The position numbers and the translations under genes were made by a program. Shown here in pieces: positions 11,024 to 28,084 of a stretch of 34,835 nt of DNA. The notes under the pieces were generated by a model. It was not told where the DNA came from, did no database searches, and saw only the letters and a program-made list of their open reading frames with translations. The DNA is from Bacteriovoracaceae bacterium (lineage in GTDB: Bacteria > Bdellovibrionota > Bacteriovoracia > Bacteriovoracales > Bacteriovoracaceae): positions 1 through 34,835 of the forward strand of contig JABIHA010000090.1 of the NCBI GenBank assembly GCA_018649885.1. Reading direction: 5' to 3'. The number at the start of each line of letters is the position of its first letter. Position 1 is the first letter of the stretch.

Positions 11024-11212
11024 ACTACCTAGAGAGATACCATGGGAATGATGAAATATTTTTTACTAACTCTAGTATTCCCTTTGATGTGATGGAAACA
11101 AAAATTGATCAGCATCTGATAAATTCTGGCCTTGCCCTCGAAGAAGAAGTTCAAGGGGAAGACACTAGTGGTGGAAACTCAAAAGACTGAGAATAATAAA
11201 ATGGAGAAGATT

Positions 11213-12022
11213 ATGAAAATGGTTCTAAGTGCTTTAATTGTTTTGCTTGTGAGTTCTCAGGTCATGGCCACATGTGATGACAACGATGTTCTTCTTACAA
11301 GCTATGGTTCTAGTAAACTGAATGTGGTTAAAGCTGTAAAGAGTATTACTTCACTGGGACTAAAAGAAGCTAAAGAGCTTGTGGATACAATTCCTTCAAC
11401 TATTTTAGGTAGTGTTTCTGAAGCAGAGGCAGAGGCAACAGTAGTCTCACTAGAAGCTGCTGGGGGGGAAGCCGAGGTGGTTTCAAATTGCGAGGAAGAA
11501 AGTGAAGGAGAAGAAGAAAGCTCAGAGTCTTCAAGCTTTTCTTGCTCAACATATGCAGTTGTGGTGAATGCAACTTATTCAGACAAGAGTGCTTTGGCGA
11601 CAAGTTTAACAGCACTGCTGGGAGAGTCTGAGAGCAACATTAGTACAATGCTCGACTCCATTCCTGTAGCGGTCAAGTCAGACCTAGATCTTGAGACGGC
11701 AAAAGCTCTTGAGATAAGTTTAGAGTCCTATAGTTTAACTGCTTCACTTGTGGCCCAATGCCAAGATAGCTCAGATGATGATAGTGAAGTGTCGAGCTGT
11801 GAGTTTTATGATGTAAATCTTGATAGCGTTGGTACTAGCAAGTTAAACGTGGTTAAGGCGATCAAGTCTCTTACAGGTCTTGGACTTCGAGAGGCAAAAG
11901 ATATTGCCGATGCTGCTCCATCAGTTGTAGAAGAAGACCTAAGCTACGAAGAGGCGCAGAGTTGGGAATCTGATCTAGAAGATGCTGGAGGCGAAGCCTC
12001 TATCTCAGAGAGTTGTGATTAG
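11213..12022 (+). CDS. Secreted protein with three tandem ribosomal bL12 (L7/L12) C-terminal-like domains
   Basis: GGAG RBS at 11203-11206 and ATG at 11213. Signal peptide MKMVLSALIVLLVSSQVMA. Domains 1 and 3 have DV.L...G.SKLNVVKA(V/I)KS(I/L)T.LGL(K/R)EAK...P.......S..EA......LE.AGGEA. Domain 2 is degenerate. No L12 N-terminal dimerisation domain. Confidence 0.9.
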   Translation: MKMVLSALIVLLVSSQVMATCDDNDVLLTSYGSSKLNVVKAVKSITSLGLKEAKELVDTIPSTILGSVSEAEAEATVVSLEAAGGEAEVVSNCEEESEGEEESSESSSFSCSTYAVVVNATYSDKSALATSLTALLGESESNISTMLDSIPVAVKSDLDLETAKALEISLESYSLTASLVAQCQDSSDDDSEVSSCEFYDVNLDSVGTSKLNVVKAIKSLTGLGLREAKDIADAAPSVVEEDLSYEEAQSWESDLEDAGGEASISESCD

Positions 12023-14959: not shown

Positions 14960-16078
14960 ATGTTTGAAGATTTCACAGTTAAAGACCAACTTATACCAAC
15001 TGACCCACGTTTTGCTTGTGGTCCTTCGAAGGTACCAGTGGAATATCTCGAGCGTTTGGCCGCAACGGGTAAATATTTAATGGGCACTTCACATAGAAAA
15101 AGTGCAGTTAAAAATTTAGTAAAAGAAGTCCAAGAAGGCCTGCTAGAATATTTCGGTGTGGGGGGCACTCACAAAGTTGTTCTGGGTAACGGCGGTGCTA
15201 CGCTACTATTTGATATGATTGGTCTGGGTGTCGTACAAAAAAAATCGATTCACTATACTTGTGGTGAGTTTTCTAGCAAGTGGTTCAAAAGCATTGATTC
15301 CATCCCTTGGCTTGAAGCAGAAAATAGATCCGCCGGGTATGGACAAGGAAATCAGTTCGGCGATAATTCTGGTGCTGATACTGTATGTGTGACTCTGAAT
15401 GAAACATCTACGGGTGTTCAGATGAGCGAGTTGCCCAAAGTAGAAGAAGGTGCACTTCTATGTATGGATGCCACCTCAGGTGCTGGTCAGTGCCCTTGTG
15501 ATGTCTCTAAGGTCGATGTTTTCTTCTTCTCACCTCAAAAGGTTTTTGCTTCTGATGGAGGCCTTTGGGTGGCGATTATGAGTGACAAAGCAATTGAAAG
15601 GGCCCTTAGCATAGCAGGGGACAAGAGTCGCTACGTACCAGGCATTATGGACTGGAATGCGGCCATAACCAATGGAGAAAAAAACCAAACTTATAATACT
15701 CCCGCCATAGCCACATTATTTTTTATGAACGAGCAAATTAAAGAAATGAATAAGCTCGGTTATTCTGAAGTGCAAAAACTTGCTGAAGAAAAAGCGAATT
15801 TTCTCTACAGCTGGGCAAGTGAAAAAGAATATCTCAGTTGTTATGTTGAGAAAGATTCGGTTCGATCCCGCGCCGTGGCTTGTATCGACGTTGATGAAAA
15901 AATTCCCATTTCAGATCTTATTAATGTGCTTCGAAAGAAAAAAATTCTGCAAGGAATTGATGCTTATAGGAAGCTAGGACGCAATCAAATGCGTATTGCC
16001 CTCTTTCACAACGTGACTTTTGAAGACTTAAAAAAACTTACAACTATTGTCTCCTTGGCCATTGAAAGCGAACTGTAA
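14960..16078 (+). CDS. serC: Phosphoserine aminotransferase (actinobacterial/Mycobacterium-type)
   Basis: PTDPRFACGPSKV, GTSHRK, LGNGGAT, NETSTGV, DATSGAG, FSPQK (PLP lysine), NQTYNTPA and YRKLGRNQMRI motifs. Confidence 0.9.
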   Translation: MFEDFTVKDQLIPTDPRFACGPSKVPVEYLERLAATGKYLMGTSHRKSAVKNLVKEVQEGLLEYFGVGGTHKVVLGNGGATLLFDMIGLGVVQKKSIHYTCGEFSSKWFKSIDSIPWLEAENRSAGYGQGNQFGDNSGADTVCVTLNETSTGVQMSELPKVEEGALLCMDATSGAGQCPCDVSKVDVFFFSPQKVFASDGGLWVAIMSDKAIERALSIAGDKSRYVPGIMDWNAAITNGEKNQTYNTPAIATLFFMNEQIKEMNKLGYSEVQKLAEEKANFLYSWASEKEYLSCYVEKDSVRSRAVACIDVDEKIPISDLINVLRKKKILQGIDAYRKLGRNQMRIALFHNVTFEDLKKLTTIVSLAIESEL

Positions 16079-16234
16079 AAATATTTATCCACATTGTCCC
16101 TTTTGATAGCGCCCAAATTGTGAACAGTACGCTCCAGAGCTGAACACAATTATTAAATGACAGACTATTTTAGATAGACAATAAATTCTCAGCCGACATA
16201 GAATGATTCGAATTAATCAACTCAAGGAGGGATT

Positions 16235-16426
16235 ATGGCCAAGGTAATTATGGGCCTCTGTCTTACATTTTGTAGCGCACTCGCGTTTTCAAATGTTATC
16301 ACAGACCACGATCTAAATGCTTTCGACGAATCACAGTCGGTTCAAGAATCACTAGTACAGTACAACAGCGAAATTGAAGATTTACCCGATATCTTAGATA
16401 TCGACGATTCTGAAGATTCATTTTAA
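16235..16426 (+). CDS. Small secreted acidic peptide, first gene of the AAA+ operon
   Basis: AAGGAGG RBS and signal peptide MAKVIMGLCLTFCSALAFS. The mature part is Asp/Glu-rich with no Lys or Arg. Confidence 0.7.
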   Translation: MAKVIMGLCLTFCSALAFSNVITDHDLNAFDESQSVQESLVQYNSEIEDLPDILDIDDSEDSF

Positions 16427-16466
16427 CCAAATTTATTTTTGTGAATAAATATTCTGGGGAGAATAC

Positions 16467-19190
16467 ATGAAACCAGTGCATTTAATTTTATTAGGCAGTT
16501 TACTTGCAAGCTTAGGTGCTTTTGCAGGCGAGCTGAAACTTAGATCCGATTACCTTATTATGTATAAGGAAGCCGCGGCTCATTTCAAAACCATAGGTAT
16601 TGATGTGAAGCCTGGTATTTACTTACACAACAGAAGCCAAACTATTGGAAGAGAAGATCTTAAAGATATTTCTTCTGGTGGTAGCTGGAAAGTTCCTCTC
16701 ATTGGAAAGGAAATCTATTTGGGCTACGCTTCTGGTCAAGTTCCCAAAACTCGTAATGAAGTTTGGGCCATCTTTGATGGGAAATTCTTTTTGGTTAAAG
16801 ACCAAAAGGGAGCTACTCAACAAATTAACAATGGGGTTCCATTAGAGATTGTTCCAGCCAGAGAGGGAATGTATCTGGTAACCGCTTCTAAAAAGGTTAT
16901 TTTTAGATATCATGAAGCGGATAGAAACAAGACTCTTAAAAGTCAAAATCCCTACAACTTGTACTCACTTCATCCACACTCATATCAACTGAGTAGGGAC
17001 GGGCACAATATGTTGTTTTTAACTGAAGATTTAAAACTTGTAAGACACGGCAATGATGGAAAAAACCAAGTCATCGTTCCAAGCTTTGAGGAACATCCAA
17101 AGCTGGGGCCAAAGATGAGTTTTACAGGAGACGGGATCTTCCTTCCAACGGCAACAGGTATTGAATTTCTTAAATTAGACGGTACAGGAAAGGTTGAGAG
17201 CAAATCTCAAATCCTTACTCTTCGTTCTGATGAAAGAGTTGTTTTTTACGAAAATATTCCAATTCTTATTCAAAACCTAGCAGTAGGCGGAAAAAGAAAG
17301 TACATCCTCGGTGATGATGGCTCACTTCTTCCACTAGATGCTGGTAAGAACCTATACGGAACAAAGCTTAAGTCACTAGAGATTAATCTTCTTATGAGTT
17401 ATGCAGAAGATTGGGGCTCAAGAGCTAGACTTGGTCACTTCGATAGTATCTTTATTAGAGATGCTTATATTGAAAGAGCACTATCTTTATTAAAAGGTCA
17501 GACCATGACTTGGGTGAATATGTCAGGGCCTTACGGCGTTGGTAAATCATCACTACTTAAGTCAGTGACAAAGTATATTGTTAGACAACAAGAGAAAGGC
17601 TCTGTTGAGTGGGAAGAATTTGAAATCTTTCATTTTCCGCTATCTAGTGTGATCGCTGCTAAAACAGCTTCTGATCAGATTTGTCCTAAAGGTGTATGTA
17701 AAAATGGTGGAACTCCTCCATGGATTAAAGTTCAAAATGCACTTTTTGGTAGAAAAGTACTTATTTTGATGGATGACTTTTTAGATGATCCAGGTCTAGG
17801 GCCAACCAATATTAATAAGGCGATGGATGCATTTTTAGGATTTTTCCGTAAAGAGATTAAAGACGGAAAACTTAGAATTATCACTACTGCAGATGACATT
17901 CTCTGGAGAGATATAAACGTTGCTAACCCACAAGTTAAGAATATGGGTTATAACGTTACTGTTACATCTCCTCCACCAGAAGAGTTGGACGCGATGCTTT
18001 CAGCGGCCATGAGAAGTCTTGAAGGAAAATTCAAGGTTAGTTTTGGCGAAGGTGTTAAGGGTATTATCCTTGACTCTGCAAGAGAGCTTTTTCCAATAGA
18101 TGTTGAACCAAATAGATCAATTAGATCAGCAGAAATTTTGGCGAGAACTCACGGGAGTATCAATAGCAAGGGAATCACACAGATTGGGGTTCTTGAAGTT
18201 AGAAAGCACTTTCTATCTTACGTATTTGATGCCACTAAACTTGAAGAAATGGATACTGTTGCTCTTAGAGCGATGCTAGATCGTGAAGTTGTAGGTCATG
18301 AAGAAGTTAAAGATGAAATTGTTAATAAGTTCATCTCTTTAAAGCTTGGTATCATCTCTATGGATGAGCCCATCGCAAAATTTCTTTTCACAGGACCTAC
18401 TGGAGTTGGGAAAACCTATACAGCTGAGCTACTTGCTAAGCAAATAGGTGTACCAATGATCAAGATTGACATGAGTTATTTCACTGGATTTGATCCAGAT
18501 TCAATGATCACTCAAATGGTAAAAAATCAAAAGGGTAAGCCTTATGTATTACTACTTGATGATGTTGATAAGTCAGCTGTCAAACTTGCAGAACTAAGAG
18601 GCCTTATAGAAAGAGGGATCTACGCTGAAGGAACAGACAATGAGCTAAGCTTTAGAAATGCCATCATTATTATGACTGGTAACTATGGCGCCAAGCTTAT
18701 TTCAGAAGCCTCAAGCCTTAGCATTAAAGAAATTCTTCCACTTCTAAGAGAATATGTTCTCAGTGGTGAGACTCCTGCTAATGAAAAAATTCCACTTCAC
18801 GTATGGGCAAGACTTCAAGAATCAACTTTGATTTTTAAAGCTCTTACAGAAGATCAACTAACACTAGTTTCTAAGAAATTTGTAAAAGAATTAAGTAGAG
18901 ACTTTATGCTCAGAGAAAATATCAAGATTATGGTTGGTGACAATTACCTTGAGTATGTTGTTTCAACTAGCCTTGATAGCTCCCTTGGTGCTTCTCCAAT
19001 TCGTGAGAAAATCGTGGGCGATCTCAAGAGAAAAATTGCAGAACATCTATTTGCCATTAAAGAAGCTGATAAGACTAAGGCCATTATGCTCAAGATTTTT
19101 CCAAGAGTCAGAAAGGTTTACATCGATCAAGCTCCATCTGGCAGATTAGTGATTGTAAATAATACGCAAGCAGGATTTCCTGTTAAATAG
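16467..19190 (+). CDS. Signal-peptide-bearing Clp/Hsp100-like double AAA+ protein, catalytically degenerate
   Basis: Signal peptide MKPVHLILLGSLLASLGAFA. Walker A motifs GPYGVGKS (17526-17549) and GPTGVGKT (18393-18416). Walker B reads ILMDD and LLLDDVDK. Also VVGHEEVK, IDMS and IIIMTGN; sensor-2 reads GASP. Confidence 0.85.
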   Translation: MKPVHLILLGSLLASLGAFAGELKLRSDYLIMYKEAAAHFKTIGIDVKPGIYLHNRSQTIGREDLKDISSGGSWKVPLIGKEIYLGYASGQVPKTRNEVWAIFDGKFFLVKDQKGATQQINNGVPLEIVPAREGMYLVTASKKVIFRYHEADRNKTLKSQNPYNLYSLHPHSYQLSRDGHNMLFLTEDLKLVRHGNDGKNQVIVPSFEEHPKLGPKMSFTGDGIFLPTATGIEFLKLDGTGKVESKSQILTLRSDERVVFYENIPILIQNLAVGGKRKYILGDDGSLLPLDAGKNLYGTKLKSLEINLLMSYAEDWGSRARLGHFDSIFIRDAYIERALSLLKGQTMTWVNMSGPYGVGKSSLLKSVTKYIVRQQEKGSVEWEEFEIFHFPLSSVIAAKTASDQICPKGVCKNGGTPPWIKVQNALFGRKVLILMDDFLDDPGLGPTNINKAMDAFLGFFRKEIKDGKLRIITTADDILWRDINVANPQVKNMGYNVTVTSPPPEELDAMLSAAMRSLEGKFKVSFGEGVKGIILDSARELFPIDVEPNRSIRSAEILARTHGSINSKGITQIGVLEVRKHFLSYVFDATKLEEMDTVALRAMLDREVVGHEEVKDEIVNKFISLKLGIISMDEPIAKFLFTGPTGVGKTYTAELLAKQIGVPMIKIDMSYFTGFDPDSMITQMVKNQKGKPYVLLLDDVDKSAVKLAELRGLIERGIYAEGTDNELSFRNAIIIMTGNYGAKLISEASSLSIKEILPLLREYVLSGETPANEKIPLHVWARLQESTLIFKALTEDQLTLVSKKFVKELSRDFMLRENIKIMVGDNYLEYVVSTSLDSSLGASPIREKIVGDLKRKIAEHLFAIKEADKTKAIMLKIFPRVRKVYIDQAPSGRLVIVNNTQAGFPVK

Positions 19191-19216
19191 GACTTAGAAC
19201 ATAAAGGAGTATGTTT

Positions 19217-20026
19217 ATGAAATTCATGATGATTGGGGTTCTTACCTTAGCTTTTGGGATGAATGCCTTCGCAGAGGAAGACGATTTCTTTCGCAAGAAA
19301 AATGCTATTCTCTTTGTTCTCGATATCTCTGGCTCTATGATGGGAGCGCCTTTGACGAAAGTTAAGGGAGTGATTGCAAGGACTATTCCGAAGGTTAATA
19401 AGAAAGATTACGTTGGGCTTATTTCATTTTCAGGATGTGGCCATAACTATGTAAAGACTCAGGTACCTCTAACAGTCGGTGCTCATACAAAGGTTGTGGC
19501 ACGCGCAGCTGGACTTAGAGCAGGAGGAGCAACTGATTTATCACTCGCTCTAACTTACGCCGAAAACGAAGTAGCTAGGCTTGATCATGGTACATGTGCC
19601 AGTGTGATTGTTCTAACAGACGGAGCAGATTCGTGTGGGAACAAAAATGCTAAAGATCGTGCAGAAGACATCTCTACTAAATACGGAAACTGTAAGTCAG
19701 TAGACGTTATTAGTATTGGTATGGGCGATTGGGAAGGCGACATCCTAGATGATATTGCTAAAAATGGTAAAGGCGATCACAGAAGAGTTGAAGAGCCTGA
19801 TGACATTGAAGAGCAAATCAAAGATATCCTTAAAAAACGTCAACGAGACAGCAAAGGTAAAGGTGGCTGGGAAGGCGACTATAAGGATAAAAAAGACAAG
19901 AAGAAAGGTGACGACAAAAAAGGTGACGACCCTGAAGAGAAGAAAAGATCTGATGAAAGGGAACGTGAACGTCAAAGACAAAAACAAAAAGAAGGTAAAG
20001 GTAAAGGTAAGGGTGGCAAGAAGTAG
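19217..20026 (+). CDS. Secreted von Willebrand factor A (vWA) domain protein with highly charged C-terminal tail
   Basis: AAGGAG RBS (19204-19209) favours ATG 19217; 19211 is the alternative. Signal peptide ends AFA. MIDAS is intact (DISGS, GATD, LTDG). 4 Cys and a K/D/E/R-rich tail. Confidence 0.9.
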   Translation: MKFMMIGVLTLAFGMNAFAEEDDFFRKKNAILFVLDISGSMMGAPLTKVKGVIARTIPKVNKKDYVGLISFSGCGHNYVKTQVPLTVGAHTKVVARAAGLRAGGATDLSLALTYAENEVARLDHGTCASVIVLTDGADSCGNKNAKDRAEDISTKYGNCKSVDVISIGMGDWEGDILDDIAKNGKGDHRRVEEPDDIEEQIKDILKKRQRDSKGKGGWEGDYKDKKDKKKGDDKKGDDPEEKKRSDERERERQRQKQKEGKGKGKGGKK

Positions 20027-20076
20027 CCACCGCTTTCTTAACCTATGCTTATTCTCATCCAATTTGGGAGGATCAT

Positions 20077-22455
20077 ATGCGGTTTAAAAAGTTTTGGAGT
20101 ACAGTTCTACTTATGTGTGCGGGGACGTCCTTGTATGCAGCAGACTGTAGCAAATTTCCTAGTGAAAATTTTGACTGGGTTAAGAAAACTCCATCAGGGC
20201 ATTGCCTTGGTCTTAGGGTTGCTGGCAATCAAAAAGCGAGTAATATTTTAGAAGGTGATATGGTATGGATCGAAGGAAACAAGCCATATCGTATTGGTGC
20301 AGAGCCTGGAACTTTCGTTTTTACTAAAAGTGGCGTCATGGGCGTTTACTTTCAAGGTCGAAATGCTGAAATTCGTTCATGGACCTCTCTTGATAAATCA
20401 ATAAAGCCAAAGATTTGTCGTAAGAATATTTCCATTAAAGATTTAAGAAGTGGAAAAATTAGAATTACGCCAATTAGAGGCAAAGGGTATGCAGTACAAG
20501 AGAAAGTTGTTTCTCAGTCATATTTCGAAGGTTGTGAAAAATCTGGAAAAGGTAAAATCTTCGCTGATCTTACTGAATCTGATCGAATCTCGCTTCAGAA
20601 GTACTCACCTTTTTCTCACTTGTCAAATGATCTAACAGATCCTGAAACCAATGCAACACTTCCTGAAATTTTGGGAAGAGATGAGTTGGTTGATAAGCTG
20701 ATTGCAAGATTTAGAAATGATTCCAAAAGATCAACTATGCTTTGGGGTCCAGCTGGTGTTGGTAAAACAGCTCTTGCTTACAGACTTGCCACAAGAATTG
20801 TTAGAGGTGAAGTTCCCGATTGGTTGAAAGACTGGTCAGTTCATATCATCGATCTTGGTGCTGTAAACGGTGAAGGTTTTTCAGGTTTAGCTGAAAAGAA
20901 AATGACTGAAATCGTAAAAGCTGCCTCTGGGAAAAAGACAATCCTCCTAATGGATGAAATCCATCAATTAGTGGGAATGGGAACAGGGGAAAATGATAGC
21001 TCTGACGTGACTGAGGTTATGAAGACTAACCTTGCGAACGGACAATTAGCTGTTATTGGAACTCTTACAGATGCTCCCGGTGAAATGTCTTTAGTAAGAC
21101 AAAAAGAAGCTTTCTTTTCTAGATTCACTAGAATCCATGTTTCTGATCCAAACGATGATGTTTTGATGATGATCTACAAGTACAAGGCCAAAAAAGCTAG
21201 AAGACGTACTAATGTGATCATTAATGACAAGTTGTTAAAGCACCTTGTTAGACTCACAAGACAGTATATTCCTGATGAGCATCACCCAAGAGTTGGGATC
21301 ACATTCATTGAACTCATGGAAAATCAGCTGGCTCCAGCAGATGACTCTAAAACATATACAGCAACTAAGACTGATCTTGAAGCTCTTGTTGGTGAATATG
21401 CAAACGTCATTGTTCTCAAAAGAGGCAAGGACAAGAGAAGCTTTCTCGAAAGAGTTGTTGATTTCCAAAAAGACGTAAGAAAGAAATACGTAGGACAAGG
21501 AAAAGCTGTTGACGCTATTGAAGCTGAACTTCTAAACCTTGCGGCTAACAATAAAAAAGATGAAAGACCTGCAGGGATCTTTTTATTCCTAGGGCCATCT
21601 GGTGTTGGTAAATCTTATCTTGCAAAGACTACTGGTAAAATGTTTGAGATGACTCCTAAGCTTTTTCCAATGTCTCAGTACACAAGTGACGCTGATGTGA
21701 ACACTCTTTTTGGTGCTCCTGAAGGCTATGTGGGTTACAACCCAGCTGGTGGACTACTTGTAAGATGGGTTAAAAACAATCCTACTTCTACACTAATCTT
21801 TGATGAAATTGACAAGGCCCACGCTAAGATTTTTGATTCTCTTTTAAGTCTTCTTGAAGACGGTGAAGTAGCTTCAAAAGGCGGCGGTGTAACAGCTAAA
21901 TTTTCTAACGGTTTTATCTTTTTTACCTCAAACTTTGGAATGGATATGATTGATGCATATGACGTCAACGTTCTTAAAATTCCAGAGCCATCAGGTCACT
22001 TTGGTAAGAAATACAAAGAAGAAGAAATACCCAAAACTGAAAATGGTCTGAAGCAGAGAATTCTTAATGATCTGATTAAAGACCAGAAGTTTGGTTCTTA
22101 CTTTGCGGGTCGTATCAGCATTGACAATATTGTTGTCTTTCACCACTTAAATCCTGAAGAGGGACGTAAGATTGCAGTTCTTGAAACAGCAAACGTGAAG
22201 AGAATGTTTGTAGATGCTAATAAAGTAGTTCTAGATCCAAAGGTTGTTACTTACATTGCTGATCAAGGTGTTGACTTTAGATTTGGTGCCAGATCTCTTA
22301 GATACGTAGCTCACAGGGTAATTAAAAATCCAGTAAACAGAGCAATCGTTGAACTTAAGAAGAAAGACATCCTACCTGAAAAGTATGACATCGGTATCAC
22401 ACTTAAAGACGCAAAAACCGGTGAAGTTGATGTCACAATAACTGAGGCCATATAA
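20077..22455 (+). CDS. Signal-peptide-bearing ClpA/ClpB-like double AAA+ ATPase with canonical motifs
   Basis: Signal peptide MRFKKFWSTVLLMCAGTSLYA. D1: ILGRD, GPAGVGKT, LLMDEIHQLVG, AFFSRF. D2: VGQGKAV, RPAGIFLFLGPSGVGKS, LFGAPEGYVGY, LIFDEIDKAH, FTSNFG, FGARSLR. No Clp N-domain or M-domain. Confidence 0.9.
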   Translation: MRFKKFWSTVLLMCAGTSLYAADCSKFPSENFDWVKKTPSGHCLGLRVAGNQKASNILEGDMVWIEGNKPYRIGAEPGTFVFTKSGVMGVYFQGRNAEIRSWTSLDKSIKPKICRKNISIKDLRSGKIRITPIRGKGYAVQEKVVSQSYFEGCEKSGKGKIFADLTESDRISLQKYSPFSHLSNDLTDPETNATLPEILGRDELVDKLIARFRNDSKRSTMLWGPAGVGKTALAYRLATRIVRGEVPDWLKDWSVHIIDLGAVNGEGFSGLAEKKMTEIVKAASGKKTILLMDEIHQLVGMGTGENDSSDVTEVMKTNLANGQLAVIGTLTDAPGEMSLVRQKEAFFSRFTRIHVSDPNDDVLMMIYKYKAKKARRRTNVIINDKLLKHLVRLTRQYIPDEHHPRVGITFIELMENQLAPADDSKTYTATKTDLEALVGEYANVIVLKRGKDKRSFLERVVDFQKDVRKKYVGQGKAVDAIEAELLNLAANNKKDERPAGIFLFLGPSGVGKSYLAKTTGKMFEMTPKLFPMSQYTSDADVNTLFGAPEGYVGYNPAGGLLVRWVKNNPTSTLIFDEIDKAHAKIFDSLLSLLEDGEVASKGGGVTAKFSNGFIFFTSNFGMDMIDAYDVNVLKIPEPSGHFGKKYKEEEIPKTENGLKQRILNDLIKDQKFGSYFAGRISIDNIVVFHHLNPEEGRKIAVLETANVKRMFVDANKVVLDPKVVTYIADQGVDFRFGARSLRYVAHRVIKNPVNRAIVELKKKDILPEKYDIGITLKDAKTGEVDVTITEAI

Positions 22456-22456
22456 A

Positions 22457-23221
22457 ATGAAAAAAGTATTTGGTTTAACATTGGTAATTCTTGCTAATCT
22501 TGCCTGGGGTATCCCCAGGGAAGTTAGGCTGGGTATGGAAGGTTTAGGCTATCTTAATATTGGAGGAGCATCATTTTGTAATGCTGTGATGATCTCTCCA
22601 AGTTACGCCTTAACTAATAACCACTGCGTTTCTACACAAGAAGCCTGCGATGAAACTTTCATGGTTTTCACAAGAGACGGTGAAGAGAGAATCGGAAGCT
22701 ATCAGTGTAGAAGAGTTCTAGCTACAGGAGATAAAGGAGAAGCTGGTCTTGACTACACACTCCTTGAGTTCGAAGACTATCCAGGCTTTTGGCATGGAAG
22801 TGTTCCTCTTGCAGATATGAGCGACAGTGTAAAATATCCTAAAGAAGGATTTGAGATCTGGAGATTAAAAGTTGATCCTCCAGGATTTATTAAAAGAAGA
22901 TCACTTCCAAGTTACGCTCTTTGTTTTGGTAAGTTGGCAACTGACACTACTGAGTACATGTCAGTTGACCCAGATTATCTGGACCGACCTTGTCACACAC
23001 AACAAGGTAACTCGGGTGGAGCATTTTTAGATGGTGATGGTAAACTTCTGGGTCTAACGGCTCAAGGTGAACTGGATGAGAAAGAATCTCACCCAGAGAT
23101 CAACGACATTGTATTAAAAGAGCTTAAAGGCCCTACAATTCGTACTATCTTACTTAAAATTCCTCATCTTAAGGATTTGATCAAAAAAGACGTCCCCATG
23201 GGAGATTTCTTTAACCTCTAA
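22457..23221 (+). CDS. Secreted trypsin-like (S1) serine protease
   Basis: Signal peptide, catalytic triad motifs TNNHC, DYTL and GNSGG, and 6 Cys. Confidence 0.9.
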   Translation: MKKVFGLTLVILANLAWGIPREVRLGMEGLGYLNIGGASFCNAVMISPSYALTNNHCVSTQEACDETFMVFTRDGEERIGSYQCRRVLATGDKGEAGLDYTLLEFEDYPGFWHGSVPLADMSDSVKYPKEGFEIWRLKVDPPGFIKRRSLPSYALCFGKLATDTTEYMSVDPDYLDRPCHTQQGNSGGAFLDGDGKLLGLTAQGELDEKESHPEINDIVLKELKGPTIRTILLKIPHLKDLIKKDVPMGDFFNL

Positions 23222-23232
23222 AGGAGGGCGTT

Positions 23233-23874
23233 TTGCAGGAGGCCATTCGGTCAGGTAAAAAACTTTGGGCCATTCTTATTACAGGATGGATCATGGGACA
23301 AGGCCAGATGGTTGCAGGCTCTCTTTCAAGATGGTCACATCATTTTATTGCAAATAAGGGCAGCATCGCTGCCCTTACTATTGTCAACACCGCTATCACA
23401 ACTACTATGGAGTTTGCTGGAAGATCACTGCAAATGCCCTTCAAAAAGAAAATGAAGGATCAGTACTTTTTTGTAACTAGTAAAAGTGGTGGAAAGACAA
23501 TAAATCGTCAAAGTATGATCAATATAATAATGGCGATAGTGGGAACTCTTATTGGAGGACCTGTATTCTTTTTTATGAAACGATCACATCGATTCTTGTT
23601 CTTTATTACATTCGGAATATTTAACTCCTGTCTCGGGCAGGGCATGGCCGGAGTGATGTTAGATGGGGCCTTTACTCTAGAAAAATCTAGATTAGTTTTC
23701 GATTTCTTTTACAGTGGCACCTGGAAGTTTCTAGTTTTTGAATTTGTCAGAACTCCTATCGTTAGGGCCGGACAAAATATAGTCAAACTTGGACTTATCA
23801 GAAGTAATCAAAAGTTTTTTAGCACATTTGTAAAAATTCAAATTATAGATTTAATTGGACTTGGCGGACGTTGA
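23233..23874 (+). CDS. Hypothetical basic membrane protein
   Basis: AAGGAGG RBS with TTG start, several hydrophobic segments, and tight operon spacing. Confidence 0.7.
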   Translation: MQEAIRSGKKLWAILITGWIMGQGQMVAGSLSRWSHHFIANKGSIAALTIVNTAITTTMEFAGRSLQMPFKKKMKDQYFFVTSKSGGKTINRQSMINIIMAIVGTLIGGPVFFFMKRSHRFLFFITFGIFNSCLGQGMAGVMLDGAFTLEKSRLVFDFFYSGTWKFLVFEFVRTPIVRAGQNIVKLGLIRSNQKFFSTFVKIQIIDLIGLGGR

Positions 23875-23875
23875 G

Positions 23876-25291
23876 ATGAACAAATTACTACTCATTATAG
23901 GTATTTTTGTTTTTTGGGTATCACCTGACTCAAACGCTTTGTCTTTAAAAGATATATCAGTGGGAGGACAGCTCAGCTGCTACCACATTGATGATGAAAG
24001 TAGTGGTGAGCTTGAGCTTAGATGCACGGGCAATACCAAGTTCGGAGGAGATAAAATTCCGGTGGAGTTGATTTCTCCCAAATTGGTTTCCATTGGTAAA
24101 AGGCATATTTGCGCGGCCACGGCTGAAAGAGTGATTTGCTGGGGAGATAATCGTAAGGGCCAGTCGACGCCCCCGAAAAATCTTAAAGATGTGGAGCATC
24201 TTGCAAGCGGAAGCCTTTTTAGCTGTGCTATCGACAAATTTGGAAAGCTAGACTGTTGGGGAGATGATCATGCGATGCCACTGAGTCCCTACTTTGGCTC
24301 AGTGACTAAAATGAGCGCAGGGGACTCTCATATGTGTATCTTGCAAGATACTGGTAATGTGGGAAAGGTGAGATGCTTTGGTGATAATCGCCACTCACAA
24401 ATCGATGTTCCTCTTAGTCTAAAAAATCCTGTGTCCTTATCAAGTGGTGCCAATCACAACTGTGTCATTGATGAACTTGAAAAAGATCTTAAATATGTGG
24501 CAATTTGTTGGGGAGATAAAACTTACGGTCAAATTTATACTCCAGCGGGTCTTGAAATTGTAGTGGATATTTCCACCGGCAGAAATCATACCTGTGCAGT
24601 GGACTTATACCAGGGAGTGAATTGCTGGGGAGATAATTCCATGGGGCAGATTAATACTCCACCTCTTCCTAGCGGTAAAAAATTTCAAGGAATAATTAGC
24701 GGAGATTACCATAGCTGTGCTTGGGGTGCTGATGATCTCGTTTGTTGGGGAAACTCCTACTTTAAATTGGACACAATTCCCGAAGATATTAAGACCCTCA
24801 AAAATAATATGGGAGATAAAAAGCTACCCGTCACCTATCGGCTGGCCGAAATGGGGTTTGCTAAAGAGATGAGCTACAAAAGTTATCACAGTAGTGGCTA
24901 TCTTAGGGGCTTTAGATATGTTCTTGATCACAAGTCACTGCTTTCAAAAATAGGCTATATAGCTAAAAGTAGCGCTAGGAATATCAGGCTTGCTATTTAT
25001 AGTGATTACCTAGGACAGCCCCATAAACTTGTGGCCCAGACATCACTAAAAAAGCTACTCAGTGGAAGGCATGAGCAAGATATTGTTGGCGGTGAAATAT
25101 TTTTAGGGCCTGAGGCCTACTGGCTGATGGCACAAGTTGATACAAACTCAGTAATTGGAGAGGGCTATCCCGGACCCAGTGATTTAAATTGTTATAGATA
25201 TTTGAGCGATATAAATTCACCTCTTCCTAGTGTTTTTGGCAAGGCCACTTGCAATACCACTAATAAGAGATGGAACTACTACACAAAATAA
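23876..25291 (+). CDS. Secreted RCC1/BLIP-II repeat beta-propeller protein with C-terminal domain
   Basis: Likely ATG at 23876 (MNKLLLIIGIFVFWVSPDSNA). Repeated (S/A)G..H.C.......V.CWG.N..GQ...P units. Confidence 0.9.
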   Translation: MNKLLLIIGIFVFWVSPDSNALSLKDISVGGQLSCYHIDDESSGELELRCTGNTKFGGDKIPVELISPKLVSIGKRHICAATAERVICWGDNRKGQSTPPKNLKDVEHLASGSLFSCAIDKFGKLDCWGDDHAMPLSPYFGSVTKMSAGDSHMCILQDTGNVGKVRCFGDNRHSQIDVPLSLKNPVSLSSGANHNCVIDELEKDLKYVAICWGDKTYGQIYTPAGLEIVVDISTGRNHTCAVDLYQGVNCWGDNSMGQINTPPLPSGKKFQGIISGDYHSCAWGADDLVCWGNSYFKLDTIPEDIKTLKNNMGDKKLPVTYRLAEMGFAKEMSYKSYHSSGYLRGFRYVLDHKSLLSKIGYIAKSSARNIRLAIYSDYLGQPHKLVAQTSLKKLLSGRHEQDIVGGEIFLGPEAYWLMAQVDTNSVIGEGYPGPSDLNCYRYLSDINSPLPSVFGKATCNTTNKRWNYYTK

Positions 25292-25310
25292 TTTGCTTAA
25301 GGGGGCAAAG

Positions 25311-26663
25311 ATGAGGTTTTTTAGAAACTTTTTTAACTTGAAAAAAGAGGAACTGATGCCAGTTTCTTTTATGTCGATTTACTTTCTTTTGGTGATAACG
25401 ACTTTTTGGATTATGAAGCCATTAAAAAAGACGCTTTTCATCAGTCACTACGATGAGATGAACTTTCAGTTTTTTAATTGGTCTTTTAATGCGGCCCAAA
25501 CAGAACTTCTGGCAAAATGCCTGAATATGTTTGTGGCATTCCTGGCCTTTTGGGTCTTTTCAAAAATGGCAAAACGATTTCAGAAAGAAAAGCTGACCCA
25601 TCTCTTTGGTGGATTCTTCATGGTCTTTTTTATTTACTGGGCCGTTAGAATTAACACACCTTCTGTTGTGGATATTTGGGGCTTCTACATTTTTGGAGAT
25701 CTCTTTGTCACTCTAATGTGTGCATGTTTTTTCTCATTCCTAAACGACAGTGTGACACCTGATATGTCAAAACGACTTTATAGTTTTGTGATCCTAGGTG
25801 GTGTTGTGGGAGGGGTCATAGGAACTTCTCTTGTTAGAGTATGGCTAAAGCTTCTTTCATTAAGTGAATGGATGAGTGTATGTGTCCTTCTGATTGTGGC
25901 CACCATCTTTTGTGGATACCAGGCTGCTAAGGCATTTGAAAGACTTGGTACTGCCCAATTTGTTGGTGATACTGAAGCCGAGACAGATGAAAAACTAGAA
26001 GATTCGGCAATAGAGATTATGAGAAAAGTCTTTAGCAAGAAATATCTGCTTGGGATTATCTCTTTAGTTGTTATGTATGAAATGGTCTCCACACTTTTTG
26101 ATTTTCAATTTACAAGTGCCGTTTCTCACTTTTTAAGTGGGAAGGAAATTGGGGCCCAGTTTGCTAATGTTTATTTGGCCGTAAATATTGTCTCTTTACT
26201 GGTCCAACTCTTTTTAACAAGCTTTGTTCTCAACCAGCTTGGAGTTTCAAAGGGTATTATGGTCATGCCAGTGCTAGCTGCTGTTGGGGCCTTAATGTTT
26301 TTCGTATCACCTATCCTTTTAACAGGTAGTCTTCTTTGTGTGATTGATAACTCTTTTAATTACTCAATCAATCAAACTTCCAGAGAGGCCCTTTACGTGC
26401 CTCTAGGTAAGGGAGATAAGTATCAGGCCAAGGCCTTTATTGATATCTTTGGTGTGCGTTCGGCAAAGGTTCTGGGAATTGGAGCTTCACTTCTTGTGAC
26501 CACATTCTTTACTGAGTACTCCTCCCTAAGATGGGTTTCTTTCATCGCTCTTGGCATCACCGTGTGCTGGATTTTGGTAGCTACCTGGCTAGGAAGAGAA
26601 TACAAAATAAGAAGTCGTGCAGTTGAAGAGTTTGAAGCAACTGGAAAAAAAGTTACAGCGTAA
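25311..26663 (+). CDS. TLC/Npt-family (ATP:ADP antiporter family) nucleotide transporter homolog
   Basis: Likely ATG at 25311 after GGGGG. About 12 hydrophobic segments. Family-like motifs MKPLKKTLF, SKRLYSFVILGG and YSINQTSREALYVPL...KYQAKAFIDIFGVRSAK. The substrate cannot be determined from sequence. Confidence 0.8.
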   Translation: MRFFRNFFNLKKEELMPVSFMSIYFLLVITTFWIMKPLKKTLFISHYDEMNFQFFNWSFNAAQTELLAKCLNMFVAFLAFWVFSKMAKRFQKEKLTHLFGGFFMVFFIYWAVRINTPSVVDIWGFYIFGDLFVTLMCACFFSFLNDSVTPDMSKRLYSFVILGGVVGGVIGTSLVRVWLKLLSLSEWMSVCVLLIVATIFCGYQAAKAFERLGTAQFVGDTEAETDEKLEDSAIEIMRKVFSKKYLLGIISLVVMYEMVSTLFDFQFTSAVSHFLSGKEIGAQFANVYLAVNIVSLLVQLFLTSFVLNQLGVSKGIMVMPVLAAVGALMFFVSPILLTGSLLCVIDNSFNYSINQTSREALYVPLGKGDKYQAKAFIDIFGVRSAKVLGIGASLLVTTFFTEYSSLRWVSFIALGITVCWILVATWLGREYKIRSRAVEEFEATGKKVTA

Positions 26664-26669
26664 ATATAT

Positions 26670-26692
26670 AGGGGGTCTTTCTTGGGCCCCCT
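26670..26692 (+). terminator. Intrinsic terminator ending the AAA+ operon
   Basis: AGGGGGTCT-TTCTT-GGGCCCCCT hairpin 6 nt after the stop codon, followed by a T-rich run. Confidence 0.7.
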
Positions 26693-26923
26693 TCTCATTT
26701 TTATCAACTCATTTTCATCATCGTTGCACCAATCATGACCAGACTTAGGTTATGATTTTGTCAGGATCCAGTTCCGTTAGTCTAACTATTTGAAATTAAA
26801 GGACTTTCTTTTGCAGGAAATGGTGAAATTAATTCACAGGAGTTGCGCGGTGCGCAATCCATTGCTAGTTTCACTCCGTACTCAAAAACAACAAAATACA
26901 TACGACCCTATAAGGAGGAATCC

Positions 26924-28084
26924 ATGAATGCAGCTAAGACCCTAGCACTATGTGCTCTAATGACAACTTTTTCAACTACAGCTTTTTCAGCTGAAGGTGA
27001 TGAAAAGTACCTAGAGCTAGATTGTAACGGAAAAACTGGAACAAGAATTGAAATTAGAGAAGACAAAGACGATAGAGGTCGCGTGGCTCTTCATATTGCT
27101 TGTGGTGCCACTTTTTATTACGGTGGTGGAAGTGTTGCGATTAAAACCCAAACTGGTACAGGTGGAGCTTTTAATGGTGGATACTTTACGGTCATTGAAG
27201 GGGCCGAAGGCGAGGATGGTACATACCAAATTAATCCTGCCGAAGGCGCAACTGATAGCATCCCTTTTTCAATGAGATACCTATACGGTGAAACGAGGAA
27301 TGATCTTCCTGGTATTAATAGCTCTATTACAGGTCAATTTGGTTTTATGCCAGTCACAAAAGGCCTTGCCAAAATTACCGCTAAAGATGGTATGGGCTGG
27401 GTTGACGGTGCAAGAGTTATTTTCGAGCACAATAAATATGGTCAAATTGAATTAGCTGTTGGTGCCATTGCTGGCGTTGAAGGTATCACTGAAAGTGACG
27501 CTGTTAGTATCTTTAGTAGGTCTAAGCAGTACCAAGATAGCTTTGTAAATTTTATTGAAGTAAGAGCTACTCCAGCAGTCATTGCTGATATTGTAGCAAC
27601 TGAATTTGGCTACGAATATCTTGGTGGTGACGTTGATCTTTCTCATAACTTTTCAGCAGCAGCTACTGCTGATTTTAAAGTCGTTAAACTACTTGCAGAA
27701 GGTCTTGTCAGTACCAATTGGGAATCTGTGGCCGTTACAGCTGCAGGTGGTGCCAAGGTTGATCTACTTGAAATTTTATCAAATAATAAAAAATCAGGTG
27801 TAACCTTAGGTCTTTATTATCAATACAATGAAGGATCAATGAGAAGTAATCTCTCTTCAGGTTTTTACAATATTGACGGTCACTCACTACAACCAGAACT
27901 TGGTGTTAAACTTGGTGACTCTGGTATGACTTTAAAAGTTAAAGGCTCTATTGGGCTTGCAGGTCTTGCTGGAGCACCTGCTGCACCTTCAACATTAAGA
28001 GTTGAAATCTCTGGAAAACTTCCTGAATCAAAAAGAATTCGACTCGCAAGAAAAGCAAGAGAAGCTGCTGAAGCGAAGGAATAA
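26924..28084 (+). CDS. Secreted, probably outer-membrane porin-like beta-barrel protein
   Basis: AAGGAGGA RBS and ATG 26924. Signal peptide MNAAKTLALCALMTTFSTTAFS. Gly-rich amphipathic beta-strand pattern with a basic helical C-tail. The porin call is tentative. Confidence 0.6.
   Translation: MNAAKTLALCALMTTFSTTAFSAEGDEKYLELDCNGKTGTRIEIREDKDDRGRVALHIACGATFYYGGGSVAIKTQTGTGGAFNGGYFTVIEGAEGEDGTYQINPAEGATDSIPFSMRYLYGETRNDLPGINSSITGQFGFMPVTKGLAKITAKDGMGWVDGARVIFEHNKYGQIELAVGAIAGVEGITESDAVSIFSRSKQYQDSFVNFIEVRATPAVIADIVATEFGYEYLGGDVDLSHNFSAAATADFKVVKLLAEGLVSTNWESVAVTAAGGAKVDLLEILSNNKKSGVTLGLYYQYNEGSMRSNLSSGFYNIDGHSLQPELGVKLGDSGMTLKVKGSIGLAGLAGAPAAPSTLRVEISGKLPESKRIRLARKAREAAEAKE

Follow-up and report, generated by a model that had tools for sequence, protein, structure and literature searches.

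The stretch of DNA analysed here, referred to as the window (34,835 nucleotides), is contig C140 of a 5.45-Mb Bacteriovoracaceae genome in 151 contigs that is 92% complete. Its positions 16235-26663 hold one operon-like block of eight plus-strand genes, which encode two Clp-like AAA+ ATPases, here called ATPase-1 and ATPase-2, a vWA protein, an S1 serine protease, an RCC1-repeat protein, a membrane carrier of the TLC/nucleotide transporter (NTT) type and two small proteins, g1 and g6 (Table 1). The genes are separated by successive gaps of 40, 20, 50, 1, 11, 1 and 19 nt, the protease starting 1 nt past the stop of ATPase-2, and a Shine-Dalgarno motif precedes most of the called starts. A terminator hairpin at 26670-26692 begins seven bases past the last stop of the operon. 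An earlier reading of the same DNA from its letters alone (the sequence-only reading) had described eight genes in one orientation, spaced by 1-50 nt and ending at a single terminator, and the calls of open reading frames (ORFs) together with the hairpin confirmed this layout.

Table 1. Genes and DNA signals of the operon-like block, in window coordinates
Feature	Positions	Strand	Description	Basis
Promoter candidate	16175-16204	+	sigma-70-like promoter candidate upstream of g1	TAGACA-18-TAGAAT, 10/12 matches
g1	16235-16426	+	63-aa acidic small protein, signal-peptide-like N-terminus	ORF, AAGGAGG upstream, rule score 4.79
ATPase-1	16467-19190	+	predicted signal peptide, beta-rich N-domain of ~300 aa, degenerate D1, D2 AAA+, D2-small	
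vWA protein	19211-20026	+	predicted signal peptide, complete MIDAS, K/E/D-rich disordered C-terminal tail	PF00092
ATPase-2	20077-22455	+	predicted signal peptide, ~170-aa beta-rich N-domain, intact D1/D2 Clp-type AAA+	
S1 protease	22457-23221	+	trypsin-fold serine protease, predicted signal peptide, 6 invariant Cys	PF13365, PF00089
g6	23233-23874	+	213-aa hydrophobic orphan	ORF, AAAGGAGGG upstream
RCC1 protein	23876-25291	+	RCC1-repeat propeller protein, predicted signal peptide	PF13540; read from internal ATG
Carrier	25311-26663	+	TLC/NTT-like multi-pass membrane carrier	PF03219; read from internal ATG
Terminator	26670-26702	+	intrinsic-terminator-like hairpin and T-run closing the operon	9-bp stem, 6 GC pairs, 5-nt loop, then TCTCATTTTT

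Five readable loci from four Bdellovibrionota genomes could be compared: the window, L008 from an uncultured Bdellovibrionales metagenome-assembled genome (MAG), L091 and L092 as two copies in genome G283, and L093 from genome G165, a Bacteriovoracia MAG of high GC. The order ATPase-1, vWA, ATPase-2, S1 protease was kept in all five with small gaps or overlaps, the core proteins being 28-50% identical between loci, so that the anticipated synteny of Clp-like ATPases with vWA and S1 protease genes was found within Bdellovibrionota. The RCC1 propeller, which had been counted among the parts of the system, turned out to be specific to the window, and neither g1 nor g6 has a counterpart in the other four loci. 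The conserved system is ATPase-1, vWA, ATPase-2 and the S1 protease, with g1, g6 and the RCC1 protein outside it. Directly downstream, a TLC-like carrier follows in three of the loci: in the window after g6 and the RCC1 gene, in L008 as two tandem copies and in L091 as one. The unassigned exported proteins found downstream differ by locus, with 503, 488 and 925 aa in L008/L091 and 354 and 324 aa in L092. The L008 503-aa protein, considered as kin of the RCC1 protein at the same place, was unrelated on comparison.

The feature that sets these proteins apart is found at their N-termini. We scored signal peptides by a simple rule (positive n-region charge, h-region of 7-15 residues, small residues at -3/-1), and six products, g1, ATPase-1, vWA, ATPase-2, S1 and RCC1, scored positive, in agreement with the six Sec-type N-termini of the sequence-only reading; the other two, g6 and the carrier, are hydrophobic and of membrane type. 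Since the rule also picked 838 of the 2203 ORFs of at least 300 aa in the genome (38%), six signals among eight products are not striking alone. What stands out is that Clp-like ATPases carry such a signal. Nine of ten ATPase-2 members scored positive, the tenth falling short by 0.02, as did seven of eleven ATPase-1 members, compared with 1 of 110 ordinary Clp homologues and none of 120 Tgt orthologues as controls. The genome's own ClpA and ClpB likewise have ordinary N-termini without a signal.

Looking at the sequences themselves, all ten ATPase-2 and all eleven ATPase-1 members begin with a short, mostly basic stretch, followed by 10-22 uncharged hydrophobic residues and a small-residue (AxA-type) site, and in ATPase-2 members a Cys usually stands one or two residues past that site. 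The charge of the N-flank is at least that of the C-flank in 10/10 ATPase-2 and 10/11 ATPase-1 members (P0127 being the exception), and this balance argues for a topology with the body outside the membrane. Among the findings that would speak against it, the sequence-only reading had named homologues with neither signal peptides nor the same neighbouring genes; every member of both families has a hydrophobic N-terminus, and every locus keeps the gene order. We infer with high confidence that the proteins are exported; their signals would then be cleaved.

The window operon is not alone in this genome. Two more genes for Clp-D2-like AAA+ proteins with a signal-peptide-like or lipobox-like N-terminus are found at C1:35337-37535 and C17:11173-13506, and 4 of 101 genomes from the same bacterial family have members of their protein family. 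The lineage thus seems to have several exported AAA+ families, among which the window operon is distinct and appears to have the richest set of conserved partners. We found no description of an exported bacterial Clp/AAA+ machine in open-licence PMC papers and bioRxiv; YjoB is stated to be cytoplasmic in the available excerpt of its description (PMC9565160).

ATPase-2 shows the hallmarks of a working Clp-type double ring. Pfam models matched it as AAA (PF00004, in two stretches), AAA_2 (PF07724, 106.6 bits) and ClpB_D2-small (PF10431, 31.1 bits vs a cut-off of 21.9), and its profile matched solved structures of ClpB, ClpC, ClpA and HSP101. In an alignment of the ten members, GPAGVGKT with DEIH and GPSGVGK[ST] with FDEIDK are invariant, and the protein retains Walker A and B of both rings, the sensor-1 TSN, the Arg finger GR, the sensor-2 GARxxR and the D2 pore loop GYVGY. 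None of the established families claims it: the two best-scoring, ClpA (TIGR02639) and ClpB (TIGR03346), gave 271.6 bits against a cut-off of 993 and 271.4 against 1232, and ClpV/TssH (TIGR03345) gave 239.4 against 885. The N-domain Clp_N (PF02861) was not matched in the window's ATPase-2 among the best 25 of 28 families, and P0002-P0010 are also without PF02861, which most of the listed generic Clp matches have. The M-domain of ClpB is missing, with a gap across about 120 residues in the alignment to the genome's own ClpB. The IGL/IGF loop for docking to ClpP is missing as well, as ATPase-2 reads V-L-K-I-P inside a longer insert at the position of I-G-L in the genome's own ClpA. From these sequence features, ATPase-2 is probably the motor of the system, a double ring of ClpA length.

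In place of Clp_N, ATPase-2 carries an N-domain that AlphaFold2 modelled as all-beta with a mean predicted local distance difference test (pLDDT) score of 70. Fold searches with the models of both ATPase N-domains (mean pLDDT 70 and 67) returned middling matches to propeller blades, from which no fold is assignable; the best were to 3s25_A with Z 7.9 (root-mean-square deviation (rmsd) 3.9, 114 aligned) and to 5t88_A with Z 6.3 (rmsd 5.3, 135 aligned). Kinship between the two N-domains was considered and dropped as not detectable (hhalign probability 0.2%). As a separate observation, a second copy of ATPase-2 at L092:8086-11553 (minus strand, G283 contig C30) has three AAA+ modules after the signal peptide and N-domain. 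Counted on the ORF, its Walker A motifs stand at residues 279, 570 and 927 and its Walker B motifs at 344, 636 and 993, with the true start at Met 58, and it would be a three-tier Clp-like protein.

ATPase-1 has followed a different course. Its Pfam matches to AAA, AAA_2 and ClpB_D2-small cover residues 635-863, whereas residues 329-394 gave no more than a weak match to AAA_16. The Walker A Lys of D1 is replaced by Q, Q and A in three of the five loci and is also lost in P0126, and the Walker B of D1 reads DD or EN in the five loci and lacks its Glu in nearly all members of the family. In D2, Walker A is invariant and Walker B reads DD in about half of the members; compared with ATPase-2, ClpA and ClpB, the segment of the pore loop has been deleted, and the sensor-2 GAR has become GAS or GAV with loss of the Arg. 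ATPase-1 therefore appears to be partly a pseudo-ATPase, and two competent rings with pore loops were not found in it. Of the two double-ring Clp ATPases claimed by the sequence-only reading, ATPase-2 stands intact and the D2 of ATPase-1 is present, whereas the first ring of ATPase-1 is degenerate. Given this contrast between motif retention and motif decay, we take ATPase-2 for the motor and ATPase-1 for a probable scaffold or regulator. Two ATPase-1 relatives, P0122 (L093:5421-9047, plus strand) and P0128, are extended at the N-terminus by about 290 residues that precede the shared N-domain, and in P0122 this extension matches FGE-sulfatase.

The two smaller core proteins are conserved down to their functional residues. 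The vWA protein (PF00092, 54.7 bits) keeps its metal ion-dependent adhesion site (MIDAS) residues D38, S40, S42, T108 and D137 and the cysteines C76, C129, C142 and C161 in 5/5 orthologues, has a charged tail of 60-80 residues in all five loci, and gave weak matches to chelatase D and BatA/BatB models. In the protease, the triad H56 (TNNHC), D99 and S186 (GNSGG) and six Cys are invariant in 5/5, with PF00089 and PF13365 above their cut-offs, and among the Cys is the His-loop pair that secreted S1 enzymes typically have. The joint fold of the two ATPase N-domains with the globular part of the vWA protein scored 0.00 and 0.00, which speaks neither for nor against binding.

In ATPase-2, C114 and C153 of the N-domain are invariant, C24 and C43 are found in nine of ten members, and all four mature Cys of the window's protein lie in the N-domain. 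The AAA+ body of about 600 residues is free of Cys in eight of ten members, one of the others having a CxxC pair and one a single Cys; generic Clp bodies have a median of two, and only 11 of 110 have none. The relatives of ATPase-1 are mostly Cys-free or have paired Cys, and the ATPase-2 paralogue of L092 has eight mature Cys counted from its corrected start. The counts given by the sequence-only reading (four in the N-domain of mature ATPase-2, four in vWA, six in the protease and one C-x4-C in ATPase-1) were reproduced. Conserved Cys pairs next to a nearly Cys-free AAA+ body would fit an oxidising compartment.

The genes outside the core offer few clues of their own. Neither g1 nor g6 matched any Pfam, NCBIfam or PADLOC model, and g6, which has one strong transmembrane segment (96-114) and a hydrophobic N-terminus, had no usable relative in the protein atlas. 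The RCC1 protein matches PF13540 at 90.2 bits in four stretches, has a rule score of 5.13 and 16 mature Cys, and ends in an unassigned C-terminal part.

The carrier scored 58.1 bits with PF03219 (cut-off 21), has nine hydrophobic segments at a strict threshold, and is encoded by the one gene in the genome picked up by the Pfam TLC model. Among solved structures it comes nearest to the ADP,ATP carriers 9j3j (chloroplast; E=4.4e-7) and 9j3n. In a tree of 25 carriers, the window copy clusters with one of the L008 cluster copies, its closest relative, and one unlinked gene (support 100/99), and the second carrier of the genome, the family-typical copy at C1:21838-23139, falls in a different major clade. 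As the window copy groups with L008 and not with the family-typical copy, it seems to have moved along with the cluster.

The second carrier lies about 12 kb from the AAA+ gene C1:35337-37535, and we considered the pair as a general link between TLC carriers and AAA+ proteins. This idea was dropped because each of the three relatives that possess that AAA+ family has its TLC-like gene on a different contig. Another observation concerns L191:1610-5725 (minus strand, G119 contig C80), where the closest relative of the window carrier outside the clusters sits immediately downstream of an ORF of 933 aa whose N-terminus resembles, judged by eye, the 5'-3' exonuclease part of DNA polymerase I. This context may hint at a nucleotide-related role for the window's carrier clade.

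Both ATPase families are very rare, with about 10 clusters each in billions of proteins. Nine close relatives of ATPase-2 were found among 5.8 billion clusters (42-50% identity, 93-99% coverage, 664-846 bits), below which the score drops from 664 to 254 bits, the next match being an ordinary ClpB. Among 185,579 species genomes, L008 was the sole further true relative of ATPase-2, and the other 79 loci kept from that search were ordinary Clp genes. Of 401 genomes sampled from the phylum, three were found to have the family, the window's own genome counted, and of 100 genomes from the taxonomic family of the window, none. For ATPase-1, an N-domain profile run against 1.84 billion representatives found 15 proteins at E<=0.001, nine of them at E<=1e-30, and in all profile matches the N-domain is fused to the ATPase body; a word-based search gave one true relative only. 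A metagenome scan for new loci found none, one match being the window's own sequence and one the L091 contig.

The genome's Tgt protein is 77-80% identical to proteins of Halobacteriovorax, Bacteriovorax and Halobacteriovoraceae, and we therefore place the organism as a marine member of the Bdellovibrio-like group. Its cultured relatives, Halobacteriovorax and Bacteriovorax, are periplasmic predators. Nearly identical operon DNA is present in marine metagenome runs from several studies, at least half of the sampled words being found in eight runs, one of which may be the source of the genome itself. One marine metatranscriptome library holds 16 contigs at least 99% identical to the operon, some of which bridge the g1/ATPase-1, ATPase-2/S1 and S1/g6 junctions. 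These contigs hint at transcription of the operon and could also stem from DNA carry-over, which is possible in such libraries. In the RNA library X12, both operon flanks and parts of the operon were uncovered, which is no evidence of absence.

Putting these observations together, we consider it about an even call that the operon encodes a Sec-exported, disulfide-stabilised, extracytoplasmic AAA+ unfoldase/protease machine, driven by ATP, of a Halobacteriovorax-like predator, which we see as the simplest way to account for the conserved features. Such a machine would work in the predator's periplasm or in the space it occupies inside prey. ATPase-2 would thread and unfold substrates selected by its unique beta-rich N-domain, while ATPase-1 would serve as a scaffold or regulator and not as a threader. 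The vWA protein could act as the adaptor through its MIDAS and perhaps also through its long charged tail, and the S1 protease would cleave what the motor has unfolded. ATP might come from the TLC/NTT-like carrier, swapping cytoplasmic ATP for periplasmic ADP, or from leakage out of prey. Our confidence is moderate to low for the specific roles and for the ATP source; signal cleavage, assembly, ATP use outside the cell, and the substrate and direction of the carrier are likewise inferred. The bolder version, in which the bacterium feeds its own periplasm with ATP through an outward NTT-type carrier that takes ADP in, and so drives the exported Clp-type unfoldase and protease, seems to us possible and on the unlikely side.

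A number of observations weigh against this machine or its fuel supply. Apart from the permissive signal rule, four of the eleven ATPase-1 relatives fall below its threshold, two for want of a basic n-region and two with a hydrophobic stretch starting after residue 20. Two ATPase-1 relatives have a single mature Cys, and the count of mature Cys is odd, at five, in the ATPase-2 of L093. Most ATPase-2 members lack the Tyr that ClpB has in its D1 pore loop. The operon contains no clpP gene and no ClpP-type caged protease, and we know of no precedent for a monomeric S1 protease coupled to an unfoldase. The likeness of the carrier to proven ATP/ADP exchangers is distant (33 bits to 9j3j; 52.7 bits with TIGR00769 vs a cut-off of 387.2), and it is missing from two of the five loci. 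A profile built from the four cluster-linked carriers detected the carrier family in 111 of the 401 genomes sampled from the phylum and in 73 of the 100 from the window's own family, and none of 20 other carrier loci had a Clp-like gene within up to 10 kb on each side. In the tree, the remaining cluster copies form a separate pair, so that the cluster-linked carriers are not one clade. Of the claim of a co-encoded nucleotide carrier there remain the PF03219 match and the position downstream in three loci, set against a family that is common and usually unlinked to AAA+ genes. Likewise, the extracytoplasmic ATP-driven complex of the sequence-only reading is supported in part, by the N-termini, the synteny and the Cys pattern, and has to give up the RCC1 protein, g1 and g6 as core parts, a carrier in every locus and an intact ATPase-1.

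The same carrier data lend themselves to another explanation, namely that the core is a secreted kit for digesting prey that runs on prey ATP alone, and that the carrier is an unrelated nucleotide importer that is merely co-expressed. Besides the wide distribution of the carrier family away from AAA+ genes and its absence from two clusters, the position of the window carrier's closest non-cluster relative directly after the DNA polymerase I-like ORF would suit an importer. In the available excerpt of PMC5381601, the characterised NTTs import host nucleotides, and most family members are uncharacterised, as are the NTT relatives of free-living bacteria. The carrier is nevertheless joined to the operon in three of five loci, with a gap of 11 nt in L008, and its grouping with the L008 carrier and not with the typical copy of its own family suggests travel with the cluster, so that we find this account improbable. 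If prey is the place of action, the proteins could also be a translocon similar to PTEX (translocon of exported proteins) of Plasmodium, in which ATPase-2, with ATPase-1 and vWA as accessories, would serve no protease but unfold the predator's own proteins and push them across a prey membrane from the compartment that the predator occupies, much as HSP101 does at the vacuole membrane, the downstream exported genes being cargo or pore. PTEX offers a model in HSP101, described in the available excerpts of PMC6550532 and PMC8693896 as a signal-bearing ClpB-type double-ring motor outside the cytoplasm, in a compartment bordering another cell. With the ATPase-2 family profile, the HSP101 structures 6e10 and 6e11 score about 289 bits, no higher than ordinary ClpB/ClpC. 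The core is indeed trailed by different unassigned exported proteins at each locus, and the periplasmic predation of the relatives Halobacteriovorax and Bacteriovorax would agree with this account. Nonetheless, the core has no conserved candidate for a pore, the proteins would have to get across the predator's outer membrane, and the S1 protease kept in 5/5 loci points to proteolysis. We regard a translocon as quite improbable.

Two further explanations deny either the export or the use of ATP. The N-termini could be uncleaved anchors or artefacts of the called starts, and the proteins a membrane-tethered cytoplasmic set of AAA+, vWA and protease, for instance an NTPase-based system for conflict or defence. 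The permissive rule leaves room for this, MoxR-vWA and chelatase AAA+/vWA pairs are cytoplasmic, and PADLOC gave weak AAA+ matches to DolB and PDC-M37B. These matches, however, are limited to the generic AAA+ core, with no other operon gene matched. The called starts have Shine-Dalgarno motifs ahead of them, nearly all members combine a positive N-flank with a C-flank that is neutral or acidic, and h-regions of 10-22 residues are followed by AxA-type sites. The invariant Cys, four in vWA and six in the protease with its His-loop pair, along with the Cys depletion of the AAA+ body, also argue against a cytoplasmic set, and we think it highly improbable. Finally, the Clp-like proteins might be exported and act outside the cell as nucleotide-free scaffolds or holdases. 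The decay of ATPase-1 (the D1 Walker A Lys lost in four sequences, Walker B, pore loop and sensor-2) and the textbook view of a periplasm without ATP would agree with this. ATPase-2, on the other hand, has retained, over 40-50% divergence, every catalytic and pore-loop residue of D2 as well as Walker A and B in D1, and the L092 paralogue has gained a third intact AAA+ module; from both we would expect nucleotide turnover, and we give this explanation the least credence of all.

The question matters since models of periplasmic quality control and envelope transport (DegP, SurA, Lpt, Lol, TonB) assume that there is no ATP beyond the inner membrane, a premise that this gene set makes directly testable. 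If the extracytoplasmic ATP-driven machine is real, bacteria would energise the periplasm with ATP, or predators would exploit prey ATP through secreted unfoldases, giving a bacterial counterpart of Plasmodium PTEX and of the AAA+ proteins in the lumen of the endoplasmic reticulum. Should the bacterium supply its own periplasmic ATP, this would be the first ATP-dependent unfolding and degradation machine in a bacterial periplasm, breaking the ATP-free rule. If the proteins were cytoplasmic, the finding would shrink to a rare Clp-like/vWA/protease system.

Compared with known systems, ATPase-2 stands closest to the class I Clp/Hsp100 proteins, with which it shares the two AAA+ modules, D2-small, Walker A/B, the sensors, the Arg finger and the GYVG loop of D2. 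It differs from them by the signal peptide, by the Cys-paired beta-rich N-domain that replaces Clp_N and by the absence of an M-domain. From ClpA, ClpB and ClpV in particular it is separated by failing each equivalog cut-off, and by having a vWA protein and an S1 protease as partners instead of ClpP or DnaK. The resemblance to HSP101 is functional only, as HSP101 is eukaryotic and has EXP2 and PTEX150 as partners, whereas the window system comes with vWA and protease. HSP101 also has Clp_N and middle domains. Torsins, which the sequence-only reading had put forward as the precedent, are Clp-related AAA+ proteins in an oxidising secretory compartment that have a signal sequence and a single AAA+ module and need activators for hydrolysis, whereas the window ATPases have a two-module architecture. 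Among the matches listed, the Torsin model PF06309 appeared only with the L093 orthologue, at 24.2 bits against a cut-off of 27, the list for the window's ATPase-2 giving the best 25 of 28 families. Torsins hold as a precedent for Clp-related AAA+ proteins in a secretory compartment, but the exported ClpB-type motor of PTEX is the closer one.

The combination of an active with a degenerate AAA+ protein and a MIDAS vWA protein with a charged linker or tail is likewise found in the I and D subunits of Mg-/Co-chelatases, MoxR-vWA pairs such as RavA-ViaA, and BatA/BatB. Chelatase and MoxR-vWA systems, however, are cytoplasmic and built on single rings of the MoxR or BchI type, whereas the window has signal-bearing Clp double rings and a constant protease; no match to the MoxR model AAA_3 (PF07726) was listed for either window ATPase, for ATPase-2 among the best 25 of 28 families. 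DegP/HtrA proteins are periplasmic trypsin-fold serine protease-chaperones that handle unfolded proteins. DegP is independent of ATP and has PDZ domains, whereas the window protease is without PDZ, and in every locus its gene immediately follows that of a Clp-like ATPase. The carrier resembles the TLC/NTT transporters of Rickettsia and Chlamydia and plastid NTT1 in being multi-pass, of similar size and above the Pfam TLC cut-off, but the known members import host ATP, whereas fuelling the machine through the carrier would need ATP export. Among defence systems, PADLOC reported nothing beyond the generic AAA+ matches described above.

Regarding the DNA signals, 17 promoter-like sites were observed in the region against 26.9 expected from shuffled sequences, and the candidate upstream of g1 can be taken as a consensus match alone. 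A small GC-rich hairpin (20012-20031; six pairs, five of them GC) lies across the vWA stop, upstream of ATPase-2, without a clear T-run, and could tune read-through between the halves of the operon. The operon is flanked by a serC-like gene (14960-16078) on one side and an unassigned gene (26843-28084) on the other. The GC content of the window is even, its neighbouring genes are ordinary chromosomal ones (AcrB, M28 and M10 peptidases, serC, tgt), and no Type VI secretion family was found among the other ORFs of the window. Elsewhere in the window, a 918-aa ORF at 3851-6607 (minus strand) has no Pfam match and lies in a region of very strong AT skew (-0.52 at 5001-6000), and a 296-aa ORF at 11132-12022 (plus strand), more than twice the usual length of L7/L12, carries two matches to the C-terminal domain of that ribosomal protein.

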